Source of the DNA: Trueperaceae bacterium
Lineage (GTDB): Bacteria > Deinococcota > Deinococci > Deinococcales > Trueperaceae
Reading direction: 5' to 3'
Length of the DNA stretch: 64,000 bases
NCBI GenBank assembly: GCA_965213925.1
Contig: OZ243927.1
Coordinates: forward strand, 896,001 to 960,000
Both the position numbers and the translations under genes were made by a program. Below are positions 391 through 13,839 of this stretch, one piece after another (within the stretch, counting starts at the first letter, position 1; each line of letters opens with the position of its first letter). Under the pieces are notes generated by a model. That model did no database searches, had not been told where the DNA came from, and was given only the letters and a program-made list of their open reading frames with translations.

Positions 391-581
391 GCGGCTACAC
401 TAGCGGCTGGCGAGATGGGCTGTGAATACAGTGAGCCGACCTGAGGGCAGTGCAACAGAAAACCCTCTACACGCATAGAGATTTACGCATTAGACGCGCG
501 CATCACACGCACGAAGTCTATGCAAATCTCCGCCCGAACTCTGCCCCGGTACTTAGCTGAATACCGATTCCAGGCGGTGCC

Positions 582-1298
582 TCACTCAAGCTGACTCAGC
601 GTCATGACGTTCCTGATCTTTTCCAGGTGCGCCGCCTCGACCTCCAGCCAGCTTTCCTCACGTTCTCCGCCCTCGCGCAGCTCCGCCGCAGCGAAGCCCG
701 AGGGCTTTAGGTCGTCGATAAAAATGATGAGGAGCTCTTTGCGGCGGGCCGAGTCCGGGATATGAACGAGCCGCGCGTAGAAATACTCGTCAGGGTAGCT
801 GTAGCCTTTGCCAGCAAGGAACTTGCGCACGAGGTAGCCGTCCGTTCCTGGTGAGCCAAGCCGCCAGAACCTAACGTCAATGCCTGCTGCTGTGTCCGTA
901 TAGAAGTTGAGGCCGTCTATTTCGACTCGAAGCGGAGAGTCAGTGTAATCATAGGCGTAGTCGTTGCTAGGCAAAAAGCCTTCAAACTGCAGCCAGAAAA
1001 GGCTTTTCAAACTTCCGTCCGGATGCTCCTCGACGAAGAAATGCTGTTCAACATCAGCGGTGCCGTAGAGTTCGAACGTTTGACCGCCGATGTACTCGTA
1101 GTCTTCGTCAAACATCATGTTCATGGCGGGGTCGGCTCGCGAGGTAAGGGTACCGGCTGACACAGATTTTTCTAATTCGGCGAATTCAGGTGATGTCGTC
1201 AACCTACCGGGGTCTGTAAAGTAGAAGTAGATAGCGGCAGCAGCCACAGTGATGAGGGCGAGTCCGGCGGCGATCAGGATAATCCTCTTCATAAGCAC
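582..1298 (-). CDS. hypothetical membrane-anchored/secreted protein
   Basis: 238-aa ORF with N-terminal hydrophobic helix (MKRIILIAAGLALITVAAAAIYF). Confidence 0.75.
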   Translation of the reverse strand: MLMKRIILIAAGLALITVAAAAIYFYFTDPGRLTTSPEFAELEKSVSAGTLTSRADPAMNMMFDEDYEYIGGQTFELYGTADVEQHFFVEEHPDGSLKSLFWLQFEGFLPSNDYAYDYTDSPLRVEIDGLNFYTDTAAGIDVRFWRLGSPGTDGYLVRKFLAGKGYSYPDEYFYARLVHIPDSARRKELLIIFIDDLKPSGFAAAELREGGEREESWLEVEAAHLEKIRNVMTLSQLE

Positions 1299-1454
1299 AT
1301 TTACTATAAAGCCTTCGCCTATTCCTCAAGGACACAGTTGCGCGCGTTCGCCGCACAAAGGCTTGAGCTTCGAAAGGCCTGTGCTGCGATCACTGAGCTT
1401 GAAAGAGCAACTTCGAGCACCTCACTTTTCGCGCAAAGCTTGTGTCGCTCACGT

Positions 1455-3677
1455 CTATGGGGAGGTATACACCCAATTTAGAAGTGCGCCTTCAACGCCC
1501 CCCGACACCAGACTGTCGCCATCAGATGACCAATCAAGGGCGAGAGAGCCAAAATCACCGAACGTCGTTTGCTGATGCCCTTCCAACCCCGTAATTCTTT
1601 CACCGGTGGCTGCCACCCAAACATGCACGCCGTCGTCCGCCTTCGCTTCGTCATCGTAGGTTGAACCTGACGTGGCGAGCCGGTGACCGTCAGGGCTCCA
1701 CGCTAACTCGTCAATGCCGTAAGGCGCTTCGATTGTAGCTAATGTTTTCTCTGAAGTACTATCAATGATTTGAACTTTTCCGCTCGACCCGCCGACGGCG
1801 AGCCGCTGGCTGTCAGGACTCCAGGCGATAGTTTTCGGATCTCGGTCAATTGTGAACGTGTGCATAAGGCGGCTAGTTTCCGCGTCCCACACTTTGACCT
1901 CGTCATAGCCTCCTCCAGCGAGCTTTGTCCCATCAGGGCTCCACGCCAGAGTAAAAATAGGGCGATAGTCTTGAACCTCGAATGTTTTGAGTAAGCTACC
2001 TGTCGTCCCATCTCGCACCTTGATCGTGCCATCTTGACCCCCACTTGCCAATCTCGTGCCGTCCGGACTCCAGCCGACTGCGTATACCTCACCACGGTGC
2101 GCGTCAACCGAGAAGAGTTGTTTGCGCGTAGCCATATCCCAAATCTTTAGAGCGCCTTCGTTGTCCTGACCACTGGCGCTTGCTAATTTTGAACCGTCCG
2201 GGTGCCAAGCGATGGCGTGAACAAAAGTGTCAAGCTCCGCTAGTGTACCGAGGCTGCGCCCCGAGGCGGCCTCCCAAACCTTAACGGTTCCGTCGTAACC
2301 TCCGCTCGCTACCTTGCCTTCGTGCAATTTGACAGTGGCGACCCGAGCCGCGTGACCGTTCGACGACATGACCTTTTGTCCGCTCTCGGCGTTCCACACG
2401 CTAAACCAAGGGATGGTGTCGTCGGCCGCAAAACGGTCGCCGTCGGGGTGCCAGTCTGCTCCTAAGACCACTCGAGCCTTCCCTACGACGCGCAGCATTT
2501 CTCTGCCCGTAGCGGCGTCCCAGATTCTTAGTTCACCCTCAGTTCCACCCCCTAAGATGCGATTCGTATTGGGTTCCCAGGCTACGACCAGAGGTTGAAA
2601 GTAATCTTCGTCGTCATCTCTCAACAGGACGCGCACAGGCTGACCCGTGTCAGCGTCCCAGATCACGACCTTGCCGCCGTTGCCGCTACTCACAAACTGC
2701 GAGCTGTCGGCGTTCCAGTCGACGTCCCAGACCCCTCCGAAAACATCAATCTCATAGAGGTGTTCGCCGGTTTCTGCATTCCATACACTGATCGAACGGT
2801 CTCCACCTACGATCTTCTCGCCATCCTGACTCCACGCCACAGCGTTATAGGTGTAATTATCGAGGCTCCAAAGCTCCTGGCCGCTCGCTATGTCCCACAC
2901 CCGCAATAACGCGTCGCCGCAGCTAACAAGTTTAGTCCCATCCGGACTCCAAGCTATATCGGTGACTTCTTCTGTATGTCCGACTAGGTCGGCGACGACT
3001 TCGCCCGTTGCCACAGACCAAACTTTAAGGCTTCCGCCCTTAAACGGTGCACCCGAACCACTTGCCACGAAAAGTCCATCCGGACTAAATGCGACCGCTT
3101 CGGCTTTTGCCGAATAGGTGTCGGAATCGAAATGATCATCGAGAGTGAATTTTAGGCTTCCCGTGGTTGCGTCCCAAAGTTTGACCATGCCGTCTGCCCC
3201 GCTAGTCGCGAGCAACTGTCCAGTCGGGCTCCAATCTAAATAGCGGACCTCCGCTGTATGGCCTGCGCCGAGTTTCCAGGCTACGTTAGTAGAGGGTAAC
3301 TGCCCTTCAACTTCTATCTTGCGCGTCGCTTTCGAGGACGTGCTCTTTGCGGAAAGCGTATAAGTTGTCTCTCCAACCGACCAGACAGCAGCTTCGGATA
3401 AACCGCTGACGTCGCCTATATCTGGCTCGAGAGTGAGCGTCAGCGACTCATCGGGAACTTGCCAGCTCAGCTGTACAGCCTCTCCGGCGGGCACAGTGAG
3501 CGTGGAAGCGGTCAATGACGTGATTAAAGTGGGGTCTGTCTCGAGGTCGACCGGGTTGTTGCCGTCTTTTACCTCATGAGTACACGATACTAACAGAGCC
3601 AAACTAAGAAGGAGGGAGCCGACGAGCCGTCTTTGATAAAAAGCCCGCACGTTCAGGCTGCTGAAATAGCGTCTCAT
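1455..3677 (-). CDS. WD40-repeat lipoprotein (about 14 repeats, probably two beta-propellers)
   Basis: Repeated GH...VAWSPDG..LASG..DG.VK.WD units; lipobox LVSC; ATG at 3677 overlaps the upstream TGA (ATGA). Confidence 0.9.
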   Translation of the reverse strand: MRRYFSSLNVRAFYQRRLVGSLLLSLALLVSCTHEVKDGNNPVDLETDPTLITSLTASTLTVPAGEAVQLSWQVPDESLTLTLEPDIGDVSGLSEAAVWSVGETTYTLSAKSTSSKATRKIEVEGQLPSTNVAWKLGAGHTAEVRYLDWSPTGQLLATSGADGMVKLWDATTGSLKFTLDDHFDSDTYSAKAEAVAFSPDGLFVASGSGAPFKGGSLKVWSVATGEVVADLVGHTEEVTDIAWSPDGTKLVSCGDALLRVWDIASGQELWSLDNYTYNAVAWSQDGEKIVGGDRSISVWNAETGEHLYEIDVFGGVWDVDWNADSSQFVSSGNGGKVVIWDADTGQPVRVLLRDDDEDYFQPLVVAWEPNTNRILGGGTEGELRIWDAATGREMLRVVGKARVVLGADWHPDGDRFAADDTIPWFSVWNAESGQKVMSSNGHAARVATVKLHEGKVASGGYDGTVKVWEAASGRSLGTLAELDTFVHAIAWHPDGSKLASASGQDNEGALKIWDMATRKQLFSVDAHRGEVYAVGWSPDGTRLASGGQDGTIKVRDGTTGSLLKTFEVQDYRPIFTLAWSPDGTKLAGGGYDEVKVWDAETSRLMHTFTIDRDPKTIAWSPDSQRLAVGGSSGKVQIIDSTSEKTLATIEAPYGIDELAWSPDGHRLATSGSTYDDEAKADDGVHVWVAATGERITGLEGHQQTTFGDFGSLALDWSSDGDSLVSGGVEGALLNWVYTSP

Positions 3678-4797
3678 TTGAAGAAGAGGCTCCAAAGGAT
3701 AACTTCTGCTCCTCGGCTACCAGAGACGAGAAACTGGCCGTCCGAACTCCAATCAAGCGTGGTAACTGATCCGATATGACCTATAAGTGAAACAAGCTCT
3801 TGGCCGGTTATGGCGTTCCAGATTTGGACACTTTGGCCGTCGCCGCTGGCGGCGAGTTGAGTACCGTCAGGGCTCCAGCTAAGCCCATAGATAAAGCGGT
3901 TAACGTCTGAATATATAGTGAACGGCTCCGAAGGAGATATCAGGGTCCATACCTTAACCTTGGACGAGTCAAGCGTAGCGGCTAAACGCGTACCGTCAGG
4001 GCTCCAAGCCAAATTGTGCACGCTATCGTAAGTGTCAAGCCCTTTCAAGACAATTTCCTTGCTCGTCGCGACCTCCCAAACGCTAACGTCTCCCCACTGG
4101 TTGCCCGCTGCGAGAAAACGTCCATCTGGACTCCAGACGATGTCAGCGATGCGGCCGGAGATTCCAGAAAAAGACACGCCCTCAGTCCCGGTCGCAGCGT
4201 CCCAGGTCTTAATAGCGCCTATACCGCTGTCTTTTAATTCGCCTCCTGCCGAGCGGACGCCATCCGGCCCCCAGTCGATAATCGCTTCGTAGCTGCCTTC
4301 AATCGTAAGTTGAAGACCTCCAGATGTTACGTCCCAAGTCTTGAATCTAGCCACGCTACCTGTCCCAGCGCCAGGGACGATTTCATAATAAGCAGCTGTT
4401 GTAAAGGCGCTGCCATCAGGCTTCCAAGTTGCGTCATCGAAGCCTGGATAGCTATTGTCGGTGAGAGACGATAGTTTCGTTCCGGTTGTAGTCTGCCACA
4501 GGTAGGCAACACCATCACGGGCAACGCTTAAAACACGGCTGTTGTCTGGGCTGAAGGTTACGGCAGTCACCTCGTCTTGGTGCCCCGCCGCGAAGGTGGT
4601 AATGGTCAGATCCTTCGCAGCAGTGTCTGCATTCCATAGTCCAAGCGTGCCATCTGTGGCTCCTGTGAGAAGTTTAGTGCCCTCTGGATGCCAAGCAATG
4701 TCGGCTTCCCAGGAAGAAAGTCCCTCCGTCTCCTTAGCGCCCTTGAGTTCTCGCAGCGCAGACCCAGTTGAGGCATCAGCAAGAATGGCATGGAGAT
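3674..4797 (-). pseudogene. WD40-repeat protein, 5'-truncated
   Basis: WD40 frame continues upstream of ORF 3674-4570 (HAILADASTG...IAWHPEGTKLLTGATDGTLGLWNA) to about 4797, then switches to the antisense of cas5e sequence with no start codon. Confidence 0.7.
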
Positions 4798-5073
4798 CCC
4801 TAGCCGATCTATCTCGGTCGGCGTGGCTACTATCCGAGCGTCCCGCTGTTTGTCATTGACGGGCTGAAAAAGGCGAGTTTGGAGGAGGCTATCGCTACCT
4901 ATCCCCGTGTCCTAGCCGATAAAGCGGTGCGGTTCGCCGACTGCCACATCGAAGGCAAAGGCAAGGTCGTACACGACCAGCCCGTCAGCTTCGCCACTCA
5001 TACCTTCGGACCCCGGAGGGTCTACCACTGCTGCGTCAGCAAGTTAGGAGCATCATGTACGTCACCGAACTGA
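4798..5073 (+). pseudogene. cas5e: type I-E Cas5 (Cas5e/CasD), C-terminal fragment
   Basis: Frame reads P*PIYLGRRGYYPSVP...HDQPVSFATHTFGPRRV, matching the Cas5e P.wp.yLGR...Ps.P and D.P.sF...RrF..R.v motifs; overlaps the cas6e start; N-terminal half absent. Confidence 0.8.
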
Positions 5074-5723
5074 CCTTAAACCAGGACAACCTCTTCGCCA
5101 TGCGCGACGTCGCCGACCGCTACGAGACGCACCGCTCTGTGAAGCGCTTGACCGAAGGGATGGAGCGCAGGGTTTTGTGGCGGCTCGACATGCAGCGTGA
5201 ATGGCGGCTCACGGTTCAATGTGAGCGTCCGCTCGAGCCGCGCTATGTGTCCAAGGCGATGCCCGGATACGCCGATCAAGTCCGGAGCGCGGAGGTTGCT
5301 ACGAATTTCGACCCTGGCGACCTGCTCCTCTTCCAGCTCGAGGCGAACCCGACCGTGAAGTGTGCCAAAAAGCGGCGGGCGCTAAAGAGTATGGCTGAGC
5401 TACAGGAGTGGCTACAAAGGAAGTTTGATGATGCAGGTTGTGAACTCCTAGACTTTGCAATCTTGAAGCAGCAAGCGTTACGGTTATATCGCCAGAAGAG
5501 GCCAGATGAACAAGAAAATGACGACGAGAATGGGTGTAAGTACGCCATGTTCAACAGCGTCAGGTTCATGGGCAGCACTAAAGTAGTAGACCTTAAAGCG
5601 CTCAAAGATACGCTCGAGGCTGGCATCGGCAGCGCGAAGGGATATGGCTTTGGGTTGCTCTCATTGCGACCTATCCCTTACAGAGACATAGCTGGAGTTA
5701 AAGTCTCAAAAAGCGTGTGTTGA
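5055..5723 (+). CDS. cas6e: type I-E CRISPR endoribonuclease Cas6e (CasE/Cse3)
   Basis: MYVTELTL..Y.TH..LWR N-terminus, F.LEANPT, C-terminal G-loop GIGSAKGYGFGLL; RBS AGGAG upstream; array directly downstream. Confidence 0.93.
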   Translation: MYVTELTLNQDNLFAMRDVADRYETHRSVKRLTEGMERRVLWRLDMQREWRLTVQCERPLEPRYVSKAMPGYADQVRSAEVATNFDPGDLLLFQLEANPTVKCAKKRRALKSMAELQEWLQRKFDDAGCELLDFAILKQQALRLYRQKRPDEQENDDENGCKYAMFNSVRFMGSTKVVDLKALKDTLEAGIGSAKGYGFGLLSLRPIPYRDIAGVKVSKSVC

Positions 5724-5729
5724 TCGAGC

Positions 5730-5878
5730 CTTTTCCCCACTCGCGTGGGGGTGGCGCGGGCGACTGATGCGCCTCGCCCTACTCCTCGCCTTTTCCCCAC
5801 TCGCGTGGGGGTGGCGCGCAAACGGGCGCGGCGAAGGGCAAAGAGGGCATTCTTCCCCACATTGGTGGGGGCGGTACC
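5730..5878 (+). CRISPR. type I-E mini CRISPR array: 3 repeats (third atypical), 2 spacers
   Basis: CTTTTCCCCACTCGCGTGGGGGTGGCGCG at 5730-5758 and 5790-5818; diverged TTCTTCCCCACATTGGTGGGGGCGGTACC at 5850-5878; exact 60-bp period; CCCCAC/GTGGGG stem; spacers 5759-5789 and 5819-5849. Confidence 0.92.
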
Positions 5879-6048
5879 ATCAGCAGAGCAAATCAAAAGC
5901 GAAAGCTGGAGTAAGTCCAGTGCATCGCGGCGAATCGCCAAAATACATTGGACGGCTGATGTATAGAAATGTCGATATCCAAGACATTGGGCGCATGATG
6001 TTTGAAACTCTTGATTAGACGAGGACTTACAGGAAGGCGTAGCAACTC

Positions 6049-6711
6049 CTATGTTGCGACTGGATGTCGAATCTCTCCAATCATGAGTCCCATTACTATG
6101 CTCGATTGGAACCAGCAGAAATTCTCGTCAACAGGGGCACGAAGTACATCCGTGAAACGCAGGTCGTACCCGCAAATTACGCAACAGTGGAGTTCCTCTT
6201 CGTCACCTCTACCGATCACTATAGCGCTCCCATAGCTATCACACTCGGTGTGTAGAAAGTTCTTATGATGTACGCAAACGCTGCAAAAGCTATACATCCA
6301 CTCCCGCCGAAAGAAAGGTTGCGTGTCCTCGAGAAGGCAGCGCGGACAATATTGAGTTGTGACAATTGGTTTAGGAGTTTTCGTCTGACGTGGGCGGTGA
6401 GAAAGTAGCTCACGCGAGCGGACACTCGCGCTTTTAATGCGTACCCGTGTCGGCGCAAGCAGCGCTTCGATATCGCCCACTGCTTGACCCGTACCCCGAG
6501 CCAAAACCTCGACCACGCTTTCTAGCTGACTGCCCTTTCGGTCTCTTATCCCTTTAGGGATAAGAGACTTGAGCAGCTTTTTTCCACTCCGCTTCTCCAA
6601 CACCTTCCAAAATCTATCCCAAGCTAAGCCGTTGCTCACAGCCAACCTAGCAACCCAGGAAGCGAAACTCTCACCTTGAAACAGTGAAGCGTGATACAGC
6701 CACAAATCCAT
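6049..6711 (-). CDS. tniQ: TniQ family Tn7-like target-selector protein
   Basis: GESFASWVARLAVSNG N-terminal motif; QYCPRCL.ED..PFFRREW.....C..H...L...C zinc motifs; C-terminal CVICGYDL; ATG at 6711 follows a TACACT -10 box. Confidence 0.88.
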   Translation of the reverse strand: MDLWLYHASLFQGESFASWVARLAVSNGLAWDRFWKVLEKRSGKKLLKSLIPKGIRDRKGSQLESVVEVLARGTGQAVGDIEALLAPTRVRIKSASVRSRELLSHRPRQTKTPKPIVTTQYCPRCLLEDTQPFFRREWMYSFCSVCVHHKNFLHTECDSYGSAIVIGRGDEEELHCCVICGYDLRFTDVLRAPVDENFCWFQSSIVMGLMIGEIRHPVAT

Positions 6712-6832
6712 ATGACAGTGTAGCAAATAGAGCAGCTTTCTTCGAAAGGACTGAAGTTGTAAACCGCTTCGGAGATCGCCCGTATACAGCCACTTTGTGA
6801 TATTATGCAGATGTGCCCCGCCCGAGCCAGAG

Positions 6833-6880
6833 CGATTCTCAGTATTCTTTACCTATTCTCAAAATTCTTTGTTTCTGACA
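6833..6880 (-). mobile_element. putative Tn7-like transposon end
   Basis: Minus strand reads TGTCAGAA-ACAAAGAATTTTGAGAATAG-GTAAAGAATACTGAGAATCG: terminal TGT, 8 bp, then two 20-bp-period direct repeats AAAGAATnnTGAGAAT. Confidence 0.7.
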
Positions 6881-6924
6881 CACCTATTCGAATAGAGGCG
6901 ACTGCGGCGGATAGTTCGTAATCA

Positions 6925-6958
6925 TGACCTCTTTGCCCTTCGCCGCGCCCTCTTGCTT
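6925..6958 (-). other. protospacer (6925-6955) plus 5'-AAG PAM (6956-6958) matching spacer 2
   Basis: Target CAAGAGGGCGCGGCGAAGGGCAAAGAGGTCA vs spacer CAAACGGGCGCGGCGAAGGGCAAAGAGGGCA, 28/31 identical. Confidence 0.9.
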
Positions 6959-7192
6959 ATAGTTGTTCATCCCGTACTGAAGTTCCCAAGGGACGATGTG
7001 CGCAAATGAAAAGAGCGCCCTGACCTCTTCGCAATCGTCATAAGTGATGAGCCATTTGTGCTTCACCTTTTGCATCACGGCGGCAAAACGCTCGTGATCG
7101 AAGGTCGTGTGCAGCTTCCCTTTTTTGCCGTAGAGCTTTGACTTTGTAGCGGATAAATAGGGCGGGTCCAGGAAAATAAAGACGTTTTCGCC

Positions 7193-7380
7193 GCCTAACG
7201 CACCGGGAGACCCGGATGCTGCGGACCCTAAACCCGGATGCTGCGGACCCTAACGCACCGGGAGACCCGGATTTCGCCGGACCCTAACGCACCGGGAGAC
7301 CCGGATGCTGCGGACCCTAACGCACCGGGAGACCCGGATGCTGCGGACCCTAACGCACCGGGAGACCCGGATGCTGCGGA
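7193..7380. repeat. 33-bp tandem repeat, 6 units (33,22,34,33,33,33 bp)
   Basis: Unit CCCTAACGCACCGGGAGACCCGGATGCTGCGGA; encodes SAASGSPGALG on the minus strand. Confidence 0.95.
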
Positions 7381-8041
7381 TGGCGCTAAGACGACCTCTT
7401 CGTAGTCGAGATTGGTAATCTTGGTCCCTTCAAGAAGAGGGGCGACGCGCCGTAAACGCCCTATCGAGGACTGCGTGAAGCGCTTTTCAAATGCACCTTG
7501 CGAATAGCCGCCCGCTTCGACCGTGCCCGAAAAGGTGATGCGGTTGAGGAGAAAAAAGCGGATGGCTCTGTGTAAGGGTGCGTCGGGTACGTTATCGACC
7601 AATGAGCGGTGCAGCGTGCGTCCGTCTGTCACCGTATCTTTCTGCTGCTGCACGCCTTCGACGAGCGCCTCTGGGCAATCGCGTAGGTAAAGCCAGAAGT
7701 GGTAAAGCTCTGCGTTGAGGTCGCTAATCCAGAACGAGGCGTTTGGGTGTTGCTGCCGCAAAGCTAAAAAGACAGAGCCGCCCCCTATGAAGGGTTCGCG
7801 GAACTCGCTGAACGTTGGAACGAGCGGCAGGATGGTTTTAAGTGCTTTTGCCTTACCGCCTGGATACCTCAGCGGTGTTTTTACCGAAGTGAAAAGACCG
7901 TCTTGCATTGACGTGCATCGTATCAGTCAATCGTGCCAGCTACTACCTCGAGGTGCAGGGTTAGGACACTACACGGAACAGTCACGCGCGAATGTCGCCT
8001 GACAGGAACGTAAAATATTTCACTTTGCTAAACTACCTCTA

Positions 8042-9688: not shown

Positions 9689-11428
9689 ATGTCGAGAGCA
9701 CATAAATACGACGTGATTGTGATTGGCGCGGGCGGCTCAGGGTTGATGGCGGCGCGGTACGCGGCGCAGGAGCCCGGCGTGTCCGTCGCGGTCATCAGTA
9801 AACTTTACCCGACCCGCTCGCATACAGGGGCGGCGCAAGGGGGTGTGGGCGCAGCTTTAGGCAACGTCACCGACGACCACCCCGACTGGCACGCCTTCGA
9901 TACGGTCAAGGGTGGCGACTACCTAGCGGACCAAGACGTCGCGGAGATGTTCGCGTACGAAGTCGTCGAGGCAGTCTACGAGTTAGAGCACATGGGCTTG
10001 CCCTTCTCACGTACGCCTGAAGGCAAAATCGCCCAGCGTAAATTCGGTGGGCACACCCGCGAATTCGGCAAGAGCGCCGTCGAACGTGCCTGCTACGCGG
10101 CGGACCGCACGGGTCACATGATTTTGCAGACGCTCTATCAGCAGTCCATCAAGAACAACGTGACCTTTTTCAACGAGTTCCACGTGCTCGACATGATCAT
10201 GGAAGCCGGTGAGTGTCGCGGCGTGGTGGCGTACGAGCTTGCCACGGGCGAGCTTCACACCTTCCAGGCGAAAGCCACGATTGTCGCCACCGGCGGCAAC
10301 GGGCGCATGTTCAAAGTGACCTCGAACGCGCACGCCTTGACGGGCGACATGATGAGCGTCGTCTACCGGCGCGGCATCCCGATTGAAGACCCCGAGTTTT
10401 ACCAGTTCCACCCGACGGGTCTCTACAAAATTGGCGTTTTACTGACTGAGGGCGCAAGAGGTGAAGGTGGGATTTTGCGTAATAGCGAGGGCGAGCGCTT
10501 TATGGAGCGTTACGCGCCTTCCATCAAGGACTTAGCGCCGCGGGACATGGTCTCGAGGGCGATGTACCTAGAGATGCGCGAAGGGCGCGGCACCGGACCC
10601 GACGCCGACTACATCCACCTCGACCTCACCCACATCGACGATCACATCATCGAGACGCGCCTCCCCGATATCACCGAGTTCGCCCGGATTTACCTAGGCG
10701 TTGACCCCTTAAACGAGCCCGTCCCCGTGCAACCCACCGCGCACTACGCGATGGGTGGCATCCCCACGACCATCGACACCGAAGTCATCATGGACGGCGA
10801 CAACGCCGTCGTGCCAGGGCTCTACGCCGCAGGTGAAACAGCGTGCGCCTCGCTGCACGGCGCGAACCGCCTCGGCACAAACTCGTTAGGCGACCTCATC
10901 GTGTTCGGACGCCGCGCGGGTATCTTCGCTGCTCGTTACGCCGCGGGAGCGGAGTACGGCAAGCTGCCTTTAGACGCGCAAGACTTTGCTAAGAGCCAAC
11001 TCGACACCGCGCTGAACGGCTCTGGTAAGGAGCGCGTGAGCCGCATTCGTAAAGAGATGCAAAACACCATGATGGACAACGCCTCGGTCTTCCGCACTGA
11101 AGAGACCCTGTGTACGCAGATCGAAAAGCTCAGAGAACTCAAAGAGCGCTATAAAGGCATCGGCGTTGAGGACAAGGGCGAGCAGTTCAACACGGAGCTG
11201 ATGGAAGCGATTGAACTCGGCTTCCTTTTAGACAACGCCGAGCACCTCGTCCACGCGGCGTATAACCGCAAGGAATCGCGCGGCGCGCACTCCCGCGAGG
11301 ACTACAAGGAGCGCAACGACGACGAGTGGCTCAAGCACACGCTCGTCTATAAAGACGGCGACGGCGTGCGCATCGACTATAAACCCGTAACCTTGGGCAA
11401 GTACGAGCCTAAGCCGAGAGTTTATTAA
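9689..11428 (+). CDS. sdhA: succinate dehydrogenase flavoprotein
   Basis: [19 protein letters not shown]-His motif, HGANRLG. Confidence 0.97.
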
Positions 11429-11514
11429 GCAACTCAGCGTCTCAGCTAGTCAGCATTTCAGGTCTTTCCTGACTAGCTGACTAGCTGACCGGCTGAAATG
11501 CTATAAGGATTTTT

Positions 11515-12692: not shown

Positions 12693-12720
12693 AGCGCTAC
12701 CTTAACGTACTCGAGGACTG

Positions 12721-12797
12721 AGAGAAAAGGACTGTTACGAAGTTTTCGCAGAGCGAAAGGACTGAGTAAAAGCTTTTCTCTCAGCACTCAGTCCTTT
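12721..12797. repeat. dispersed palindromic repeat (second copy at 36263-36341)
   Basis: Shared AGAGAAAAGGACTGTTACGAAGTTTT...AAAGGACTGAG...GCTTTTCTCTCAG..CTCAGTCCTTT. Confidence 0.8.
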
Positions 12798-12807
12798 AAC
12801 CTCGCTT

Positions 12808-13839
12808 CTACCTTAAACTAAAATACAAAAACAGCACAAAAAGATAGATACAACCTAAAATCCACACGCGGTACGGGTACCAGGTTTGGCGGCGCAGCTT
12901 ATCTAAGCGGCGGCGTGACGGGTACGCCTCCTCAACTTTGTAAATGCCGCTCATCGTCTCGCCGATGTTCACAGATGAAGCTTCTTCTTTGGGCAAGTCG
13001 TAGCGCTTGGGCTTGGGCTCGACGGTTTCGGCGAAGAGGACGACGGCGGTCACGTTATCGGGGCTGCCGCGTTCGTTGGCGTTTTCTATGAGTTTTGCGG
13101 CGGCGTCTTCGGGCGCGTGCTCGCTCAAAATCTGTAGAATCACCTCGTCGGAGAGGAGCGTGGTGACGCCGTCGCTGCAGAGCATGAGCTTGTCGCCCGA
13201 GTGCACCTCGAAGTGGAAGATGTCGAGCTTGAATTCGGGGGTGGAGCCTAGCGCGTTGGTGATGATGTTGCGCCAGCGGTGATGCCGCGCCTCCTCCTCG
13301 CTGAGGAGCCCTTGGCGCACCCTGTCGGCGACCCAGGAGTGGTCTTGGGTGAGTTGGTGGATTTCGCCGTTACGAACCAGATAGGCCCTCGAGTCCCCCA
13401 CATGCCCCACCAACCCGACTTGGTCATCCACTAAAAGCGTCGTCAGCGTCGTGCCCATACCGCGACTTTCGGGGTGCTCGGTCGCGTAGTCATAAATCTC
13501 TAAGTTGGCATCTTGCACTGCCCTGGCAATTGCCGCAGGTGGATGCGCCTGCGCCTTCTTTAGGGTGCGGCTCAGCACCTTGACCGCGCTCTGGCTGGCG
13601 ATTTCGCCCGACTGGTGTCCGCCCATCCCGTCCGCGACGATGGCCAGGACGCCTTGCGGCGTCGTGTCCACAAAATAGGTGTCTTGGTTGACCTTGCGCA
13701 CCTCGCCCGCCTCGCTCTGACCCGCAAAGTGGATGCGCGTCGCGGCGAGTTGCCCCTTCGATTGCGGCTTAGTTTGAGGCTTAGCCTCAAACGCCGCTTC
13801 AGCATCTTTCTTTTTCGCTCGGGAGGGTGCAGACTTCAT
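12808..13839 (-). CDS. PP2C-type Ser/Thr phosphatase (Stp1/PrpC-like) with C-terminal TM helix
   Basis: R..NQD, VADGMGG, HVGDSRAY, LCSDG, DNVT. Confidence 0.93.
   Translation of the reverse strand: MKSAPSRAKKKDAEAAFEAKPQTKPQSKGQLAATRIHFAGQSEAGEVRKVNQDTYFVDTTPQGVLAIVADGMGGHQSGEIASQSAVKVLSRTLKKAQAHPPAAIARAVQDANLEIYDYATEHPESRGMGTTLTTLLVDDQVGLVGHVGDSRAYLVRNGEIHQLTQDHSWVADRVRQGLLSEEEARHHRWRNIITNALGSTPEFKLDIFHFEVHSGDKLMLCSDGVTTLLSDEVILQILSEHAPEDAAAKLIENANERGSPDNVTAVVLFAETVEPKPKRYDLPKEEASSVNIGETMSGIYKVEEAYPSRRRLDKLRRQTWYPYRVWILGCIYLFVLFLYFSLR

Follow-up and report, generated by a model that had tools for sequence, protein, structure and literature searches.

What is the pair of imperfect repeats that stands between the end of a DNA methylase gene and a tniQ gene in this chromosome? 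An earlier note, made from the sequence alone, had proposed that the block at 6833-6880 of the window (by which we mean the whole 64,000-nucleotide stretch analysed here) is the terminus of a Tn7-family transposon which a type I CRISPR guide had directed to a point just behind the stop codon of the methylase. This proposal is supported by an exact break in synteny and by a survey of the motif across genomes, and we consider it very probable that 6833-6880 is the tniQ-proximal end, equivalent to the 'right end', of a Tn7-like CAST which uses a type I-E Cascade.

The terminus and its repeats

The reverse complement of 6833-6880 reads TGTCAGAA, ACAAAGAATTTTGAGAATAG, GTAAAGAATACTGAGAATCG, which matches the earlier reading exactly. 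It consists of an 8-nt terminal segment, TGTCAGAA (6873-6880, minus strand; outermost base 6880, which we favour, or 6882), followed by two presumed TnsB-binding repeats on the minus strand, ACAAAGAATTTTGAGAATAG (6853-6872) and GTAAAGAATACTGAGAATCG (6833-6852). The two 20-mers abut and are identical at 15 of 20 positions; the first holds the invariant core common to both ends of a related element in genome G260, and the second also aligns with those ends. In an alignment of the window with both G260 ends, conservation runs from the TG across 44 columns, and the flanking sequence is unrelated to either G260 end. The TG sits 8 nt before the first repeat at both ends in G260 and also in the elements of G258 and G245, and the tniQ-side end carries two repeats in the present genome (G000), G260 and G258, and three in G245.

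Taken alone, a tandem repeat with 15 of 20 identities is at chance level: the 4.58-Mb contig has 12 clusters of tandem 20-mer pairs with at least 15 of 20 identities, and a shuffled version of it has 15. These counts would suit the view that an AT-rich tandem repeat resembles a Tn7 end by chance, to which we assign a negligible probability, as it is contradicted by conservation across genomes, by a fixed register to four protospacers and by the exact synteny break described below. It is position and conservation that set the window pair apart. A pair of TGRGAAT cores at 20-nt spacing occurs nowhere else in the genome, and on a weight matrix the two window sites score 28.0 bits (repeat 1) and 27.0 bits (repeat 2), the next best site genome-wide (4.75 Mb, both strands) reaching 19.7 bits; the window scores are partly circular, since two of the four sites from which the matrix was built are the window sites themselves. 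The weak third site that the earlier note had suspected near 6782-6798 scores less than 5 bits and is not supported.

A 33-nt consensus of the end, allowing up to 3 mismatches, was found in 3 of 364 genomes of the phylum, at four places (once in G000, twice in G260 and once in G257), and a reversed-pattern control gave none. All four places are ends or fossils of one element family, and since the consensus occurs only at these, the motif is not a general regulatory element. This bears on whether the repeats might be mainly an operator or promoter of tniQ, or a terminator of the methylase gene, rather than a transposon end, a question that the earlier note had itself raised. The repeats do lie between the methylase stop codon and the tniQ start, and a double role is possible, as the TnsB sites of the Tn7 right end also repress transcription. 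Nevertheless, homology with the empty site stops exactly at the outer edge of the repeats, the same block adjoins unrelated genes (arginase, a GNAT-like gene) and in every case looks onto a matching protospacer, one solo copy persists where no tniQ is left, and the block is absent from 361 of the 364 genomes; a mainly regulatory role is thus highly improbable. A 23-nt pattern of the end also matched contig L046, upstream of a Cas3-like helicase in a low-GC organism; this match is without a second repeat and was judged to be due to chance.

Guide, target gene and insertion site

The gene that the end faces encodes a D12 DNA methylase, present as an N-terminal piece (7228-7908, PF02086 match) and a C-terminal piece, the target proper (6884-7078, minus strand; an ORF orthologous to a gene of G258). 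The CTA at 6884-6886, read on the minus strand, is the TAG that closes ORF 6884-7078; this stop codon is intact, with the terminus 3 bp past it, as had been claimed. The 3' end of the methylase gene contains the homing protospacer (6925-6955, minus strand), which matches spacer 2 (5819-5849) of a small CRISPR array inside the element at 28 of 31 positions and is flanked on its own strand by the PAM 5'-AAG-3' (6956-6958, minus strand). The three mismatches lie at spacer positions 4, 5 and 29, the first two within the seed, and there is no other place in the genome that spacer 2 matches within 6 mismatches. The gap from the PAM-distal end of the protospacer to 6880 measures 44 nt, the value given in the earlier note.

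This register recurs at three further, independent loci, with gaps and PAMs of 43 nt and AAG in G260, 43 nt and AAG in G245, and 37 nt and AGG in G258, the last gap departing from the 43-44 nt of the others. At all four loci the PAM-distal side faces the element end, and at each of them none of 2000 shuffled spacers matched equally well. The self-matching spacer in this genome is a homing relic and not a sign of autoimmunity. A pattern of guide-target mismatches at every sixth position, as expected from base flipping in Cascade, was considered and dropped: most mismatches fall at every third position, as codon wobble would give.

At window 7177-7380 a 33-nt tandem repeat has expanded (to 4.5 copies, with a partial duplication of 22 nt in addition) and has broken the methylase gene into two ORFs, 7228-7908 and 6884-7078, that are in different frames; 155 nt are absent here from G258 and from one contig of a sequencing run of the sample, X1. 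The D12 methylase looks like a pseudogene in this genome.

An empty site is provided by G258, which belongs to the same genus and carries the orthologous methylase gene without the element. Homology between G258 and the window begins at 6881 (CACCTAT...), with 87% identity, and the sequence to the left is unrelated; the comparison with an empty-site genome, by which the earlier note had wished to fix the breakpoint, thus bears out its placement. A contig with a G258-like unoccupied junction, with a loose end at 6902, is also present in X1, which is a mixed sample. The CACCT at 6881-6885 (unstranded), which overlaps the stop codon at 6884-6886 and forms the first bases common with the G258 empty site, is the presumed target-site copy by the end. 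In G000, the counterpart of the left flank of this G258 site is found at a distance of 3.2 Mb, next to a low-GC island without an end, so that the far junction cannot be read by synteny.

From this comparison we favour a breakpoint at 6880/6881. The empty site also has CA just before CCTAT, and a terminus at 6882 therefore fits it equally well. The same element would then have TGTGTCAGAA as its true terminus and CCTAT (6883-6887) as its duplicated target, with a gap of 42 nt and an end 1 bp past the stop codon. Such a placement agrees with a fossil in G257, the closest lineage, which also reads TGTGTCAGAAAC and shares TGTGTCAG, including the extra TG, and whose blastn similarity extends to window 6882, and the CA of the G258 site is compatible with either end. 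However, at the ends of G260 (both), G258 and G245 the TG stands 8 nt, not 10, before the first 20-bp repeat, and a third fossil of the family, at C1:2117289, has CG rather than TG before TATCAGAA. We regard a terminus at 6882 as rather unlikely, and use 6880 in what follows.

A decayed copy in the window and further fossils

Read inward from the end, the first gene is tniQ (6049-6726, minus strand), with 225 codons up to an in-frame TAG at 6049-6051; its product matches PF06527 (E 2.3e-17) and is 55% identical to the TniQ of G260. Behind the TAG, and in frame with it, lies the C-terminal remainder of about 51 codons (5893-6048, minus strand), which aligns with the C-termini of P0002 and P0004, and tblastn alignments pass through the stop. 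On the opposite strand follow a mini type I-E CRISPR array (5730-5878, plus strand) with a period of 60, composed of three repeats (5730-5758, 5790-5818 and 5850-5878, the last degenerate) and two spacers (5759-5789 and the homing spacer 5819-5849), then cas6e (5055-5723, plus strand; PF08798, E 3.6e-34; 58% identical to the Cas6e of the G260 element), and a 3' fragment of cas5e (4804-5070, plus strand). This fragment comprises the last 88 codons (residues 133-220 in G260; 62% identity by tblastn), and its homology begins, in translation, right behind a stop codon, which places the inner breakpoint of the fossil at 4803/4804. As in G260, tniQ and the cas6e/array unit converge.

The tnsA, tnsB, tnsC, cas7e and cas8e genes of the element family were found neither in the window, nor in the 20 kb upstream, nor in the 96.9%-complete assembly; for the transposase genes tblastn is the better test of absence, as a PF09299 control gave no match anywhere. 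The far end, which had been predicted to read CACCT-TGT followed by binding sites, is absent from the assembly in 20-mer, weight-matrix and CACCTTG scans: neither 20-mer has a second copy within 3 mismatches in the genome, and of the 1168 CACCTTG sites none has an array, and within 90 nt of 4 of them there is one core motif. What remains in the window is a dead, immobile fossil of about 2.1 kb (4804-6880), which explains why the genome holds an orphan cas6e, a mini-array and a tniQ. Two large ORFs with WD40 repeats (window 1455-4570; 746 and 298 aa, with a 22-nt overlap), perhaps one gene with a frameshift, abut the cas5e breakpoint, and have no DNA match in G257, G258, G259 or G260.

The assembled contigs of X1 raise the question of whether the fossil state is partly an artefact, or one of two forms in the sample, the other being a second, near-identical copy at the same site which would continue into an intact cas5e and perhaps represent a whole element. 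The join at 4803 would in that case be one strain's rearrangement or a mis-join. In X1, one contig ends and another starts exactly at 4803, and the depth, given here as contig means and not as copy numbers, is 8.0 to the left (with 0 differences from the window) against 16-18 over 4803-7216. Furthermore, the dominant sequence over 4803-7216 has 12 differences from the window, one of which (6050 T>C) turns the TAG of tniQ into TGG. On the other hand, the X1 contig left of 4803 is identical to the assembly, which means that the sample does contain the join, a G258-like organism is also present in X1, the family's tnsABC, cas7e and cas8e are not found in the 96.9%-complete assembly, and the alternative path itself is not seen in X1. 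The two-form account, including its explanation of the join, therefore seems doubtful to us, although a second form may be present in the sample, one in which tniQ is intact and the sequence to the left of 4803 differs. The copy in the assembly is the fossil described above.

A canonical type I-E system is resident elsewhere in the genome (L005, G000 C1:3962001-3982000), with two arrays that have about 15 repeats each and whose repeats differ slightly, located about 3 Mb from the window. The 29-nt repeat of the mini-array, CTTTTCCCCACTCGCGTGGGGGTGGCGCG, has the same stem as the resident I-E arrays and differs from them in its last 8 nt (GTGGCGCG versus ATGAACCG). The resident system coexists with a self-matching CAST spacer whose target is flanked by an AAG PAM; self-targeting may be prevented by the two mismatches in the seed and by the differing 5' handle.

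Further fossils of the family are present in G257 and in this genome, where they are more eroded than the window copy. The G257 fossil (L054 1300-1546) is a 240-bp stump made of the end and the first 18 or so codons of tniQ. A second fossil in G000 (C1:3260224-3260360) contains a 45-codon tniQ fragment with a TGA and part of one end repeat; it is orthologous to the site of the G257 stump, and the insertion consequently predates the split of the two species. A third (C1:2117289-2117530) is a solo tniQ-side end, TATCAGAAACAGAG..., broken up by about 170-180 bp that have GGATAT on either side. The G000 fossils show how such elements erode from their transposase side and leave stumps near the end at several sites.

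Other repeats and rearranged genes were observed in the region. An 854-bp stretch (window 492-1345) has a copy with 100% identity at C1:3461587-3462440 and one with 94% identity in G257; it contains an ORF of 238 aa without Pfam match and may be a small mobile element. The match of a 316-aa ORF at L004 12830-13780, which is 7-8 kb upstream of the window, covers only the C-terminal portion of the succinate dehydrogenase flavoprotein, the full sdhA being located at window 9689-11428; this ORF is a truncated paralogue and hints at rearrangement in the region. Two intergenic sequences, at window 11428-11502 (with a 35-nt imperfect palindrome) and 12708-12814 (about 90 nt), have many chromosomal copies with 80-88% identity and look like REP- or MITE-like repeats.

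Relatives of the element and comparison with known CASTs

A TniQ protein search of the 364 phylum genomes gave one close match, in G260 (55% identity), where the tniQ belongs to an element that carries on one strand, in this order, tnsA (PF08722), tnsB, tnsC (PF05621), a cas8e/cas11 fusion, cas7e, cas5e and cas6e, followed by a three-repeat array and a converging tniQ. The Cse1-Cse2 (Cas8e-Cas11) fusion has 590 aa and matches PF09481 and PF09485, and PF09344, PF09704 and PF08798 are matched as well; the TniQ, of 272 aa, stands alone at the very end. The G260 TnsB matches the solved TnsB chains of PseCAST, Tn6677, ShCAST and Tn7, TnsC has no match among solved structures, and TniQ has one only, with an E value of 0.006. 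No Cas3 family was found among the ORFs chosen between the two ends, namely 21 ORFs of at least 120 aa past L021 16000 (E at most 1e-5) and ORFs of at least 110 aa before that position (E at most 0.001). The cargo is of defence type and includes a BrxL-like protease, DUF4007, a PAPS reductase, a UvrD-like helicase and a PD-(D/E)XK nuclease.

The tniQ-side end in G260 reads TGCAAAAA, ATAGAGAATTTTGGGAATAG, GTAGAGAAAATTGAGAATCA, beginning with TGC and not TGT, and the last spacer has its match, with 2 mismatches, in the 3' end of the adjacent arginase gene (PAM AAG, gap 43 nt). An inverted end with related sites, ...TTTTTGTCA, lies 48,985 bp away and delimits an element of about 49 kb; the flanks, TACCT and (A)ACCT, share ACCT, four of the five bases expected. 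A clean empty site for this insertion was not found: the arginase gene is present in G259, with its downstream flank elsewhere in G260, and no claim made here depends on the unpublished genome G324. A second, solo tniQ-side end was observed at L024 11094-11154, four bases (ACCT) after the far end, and the 15 nt preceding the two tniQ-side ends are alike (TTTTTGCCACTACCT and TTTTTGTCAACCT), which suggests stacked insertions, or repeated homing at one attachment site.

The copies in G245 and G258 share gene order and the layout of the end with the G260 copy; they are damaged, the G260 copy being intact-looking. In G245, cas8e, a partial cas7e, cas5e, cas6e, an array and tniQ are followed by TGTGGTAA and three 20-bp repeats; the stop codon of a pilT-like gene precedes the end by 5 nt, and the guide matches at 25 of 31 positions (PAM AAG, gap 43). 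The G258 element consists of tnsA, a tnsB split by IS1, tnsC, a cas8e fusion with one TGA, cas7e, cas5e, cas6e, an array and tniQ, and ends with TGTCAAAA and two 20-bp repeats at the start of ruvC, the guide matching at 24 of 31 positions (PAM AGG, gap 37). G000 is the empty site for this ruvC insertion, with the break at the terminus; the far end was not found within 40 kb using a two-site matrix. At L022 11010-11020 the terminus, ...TTGACA, supplies ruvC with an in-frame TTG that replaces the native GTG of the G000 empty site, and the transposon end may thus provide the start codon from which ruvC of G258 is expressed. The Cas signature families PF09481, PF09485, PF09344, PF09704 and PF08798 occur in G260, G258 and G245, with the exception of PF09485, which was not seen in G245. 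At three of the four loci the element lies just past a stop codon and the recognised sequence is inside the gene.

The family is rare: the TniQ clade contains one full-length relative and three fragments, and the Cas8e-Cas11 fusion is represented by three proteins among 5.8 billion clusters. Contigs L006 and L007, weak hits of a single-TniQ search of genome contigs, proved unrelated, and a search of metagenome contigs with a two-sequence alignment found nothing.

The end, its register and orientation, the guide-target pairs with their spacing, the empty site and the intact-looking relative allow a mechanism to be proposed for an intact element, in which the binding partners and the chemistry are inferred by analogy with type I-F3 CASTs and Tn7. 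Cas6e would cut the mini-array transcript, and a Cas3-less Cascade (Cas8e-Cas11 fusion, Cas7e, Cas5e and Cas6e) loaded with the last spacer would bind the AAG-flanked protospacer in the last codons of the host gene. TniQ and TnsC would mark a point about 43-44 nt beyond the PAM-distal end, where TnsB, bound to the 20-bp repeats behind the 8-nt terminus, would paste the element together with TnsA, with the tniQ-side end facing the protospacer and a 5-bp duplication. Landing just past a stop codon, as at three of the four loci, follows the same safe-site logic as attTn7.

The end itself resembles the right end of Tn7, which also has a 5'-TG(T), a short terminal segment and closely packed repeats of about 20 bp. 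At attTn7, too, the element goes in immediately behind the stop codon of a conserved gene, and the sequence that is recognised lies within the coding region; in contrast to Tn7, the target here is presumably read by a guide RNA and not by TnsD. The I-F3 CASTs (Tn6677/VchCAST, PseCAST) share with the G260 element TnsA, TnsB and TnsC together with TniQ and a Cas3-less Cascade, and G260 TnsB matches PseCAST TnsAB (E 7e-24) and Tn6677 TnsB (E 1e-15). They also share with the present family a short array whose last spacer homes into the end of a host gene, and one defined end facing the protospacer, tens of bp past its PAM-distal edge; in I-F3 CASTs the offset is about 49 bp and the duplication 5 bp. 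Unlike these, the present family has a type I-E Cascade (Cse1/Cas8e fused to Cse2/Cas11), 29-nt I-E-like repeats, an AAG or AGG PAM, both of which are type I-E PAMs, and a short tniQ (272 aa) that is isolated at the very end, converging on the cas operon.

Type I-B, I-D and I-C CASTs are, in the accessible parts of two reviews (PMC12669027, PMC11406308), also Tn7-like, with TniQ and a type I Cascade, of a subtype other than the I-E of the present family. I-B2 and I-D CASTs, according to one of these (PMC11406308), have a fused TnsA-TnsB and TnsD-type homing to tRNA genes or glmS, unlike the present family with its separate TnsA and TnsB and guide-directed homing. The same review, as far as its text was available, also notes exceptions to the TGT/ACA rule for Tn7-like ends (PMC11406308).

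A capture of a type I-E Cascade by a TnsB/TnsC transposon has been described in Streptomyces, and the telomeric elements concerned have, in the accessible text, one ordinary end and a telomere and no protospacer by the end (Hsieh et al., bioRxiv 10.1101/2024.11.13.623437). Under the name I-E5, they are portrayed in the available part of the classification as elements that lack TniQ-TnsD and have a Cas3 that is still active (Makarova et al. 2025, PMC12669027). Compared with I-E5 as presented there, which is without TnsA and TniQ, TniQ is present here, TnsA occurs in G260 and G258, no cas3 was found among the ORFs searched in the G260 element, that element has two ordinary ends, the location is chromosome-internal and not telomeric, and a protospacer lies 37-44 nt from the end.

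A 2024 Annual Review lists, in its accessible text, five CAST types, I-E not being among them (PMC11406308), and the consulted part of the 2025 classification gives I-F3, I-B2, I-D, I-C, IV-A, Mu-linked I-A and I-E5, with I-E4 appearing in a supplementary table row as a PD-DExK nuclease variant (PMC12669027). In the available text of Rybarski et al., an I-E Cascade is linked only to Rpn-like genes, in that of Faure et al. 2023 the terms I-E, Cas8e, Cas6e and Cse1 do not occur, and in the accessible part of Altae-Tran et al. 2023 no I-E system is linked to Tn7. A Tn7-like, TniQ-bearing I-E CAST was not found in the full-text literature that is openly accessible. Within that scope the family appears to be a new and rare CAST variant, a Tn7-like one that makes use of a type I-E Cascade, and at least one member, of 49 kb, looks intact. 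A bolder reading, which we advance only tentatively, is that it may be an undescribed CAST subtype with separate TnsA, TnsB and TnsC, a short end-placed TniQ, a Cas3-less I-E Cascade with a Cas8e-Cas11 fusion, an AAG PAM and insertion at about 43-44 nt, of which the 49-kb G260 copy would still be active and of which the present sample would also hold a methylase-site copy with an intact tniQ continuing beyond 4803.

No natural systems other than CASTs are known to insert large DNA at a site chosen by a guide while avoiding double-strand breaks, and the coupling between Cascade and TnsC has proved different with each independent capture of a CRISPR effector. Type I-E is the best-understood Cascade; in the accessible part of the literature searched, its CAST role is confined to TniQ-less telomeric elements with no fixed-offset targeting. 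A TniQ-dependent I-E CAST, if this is what the family represents, would be a compact candidate tool with a simple AAG PAM, and would offer a natural comparison for how TniQ docks on a different Cascade, with a Cas6e end, a Cas8e-Cas11 fusion and a TniQ of 272 aa.
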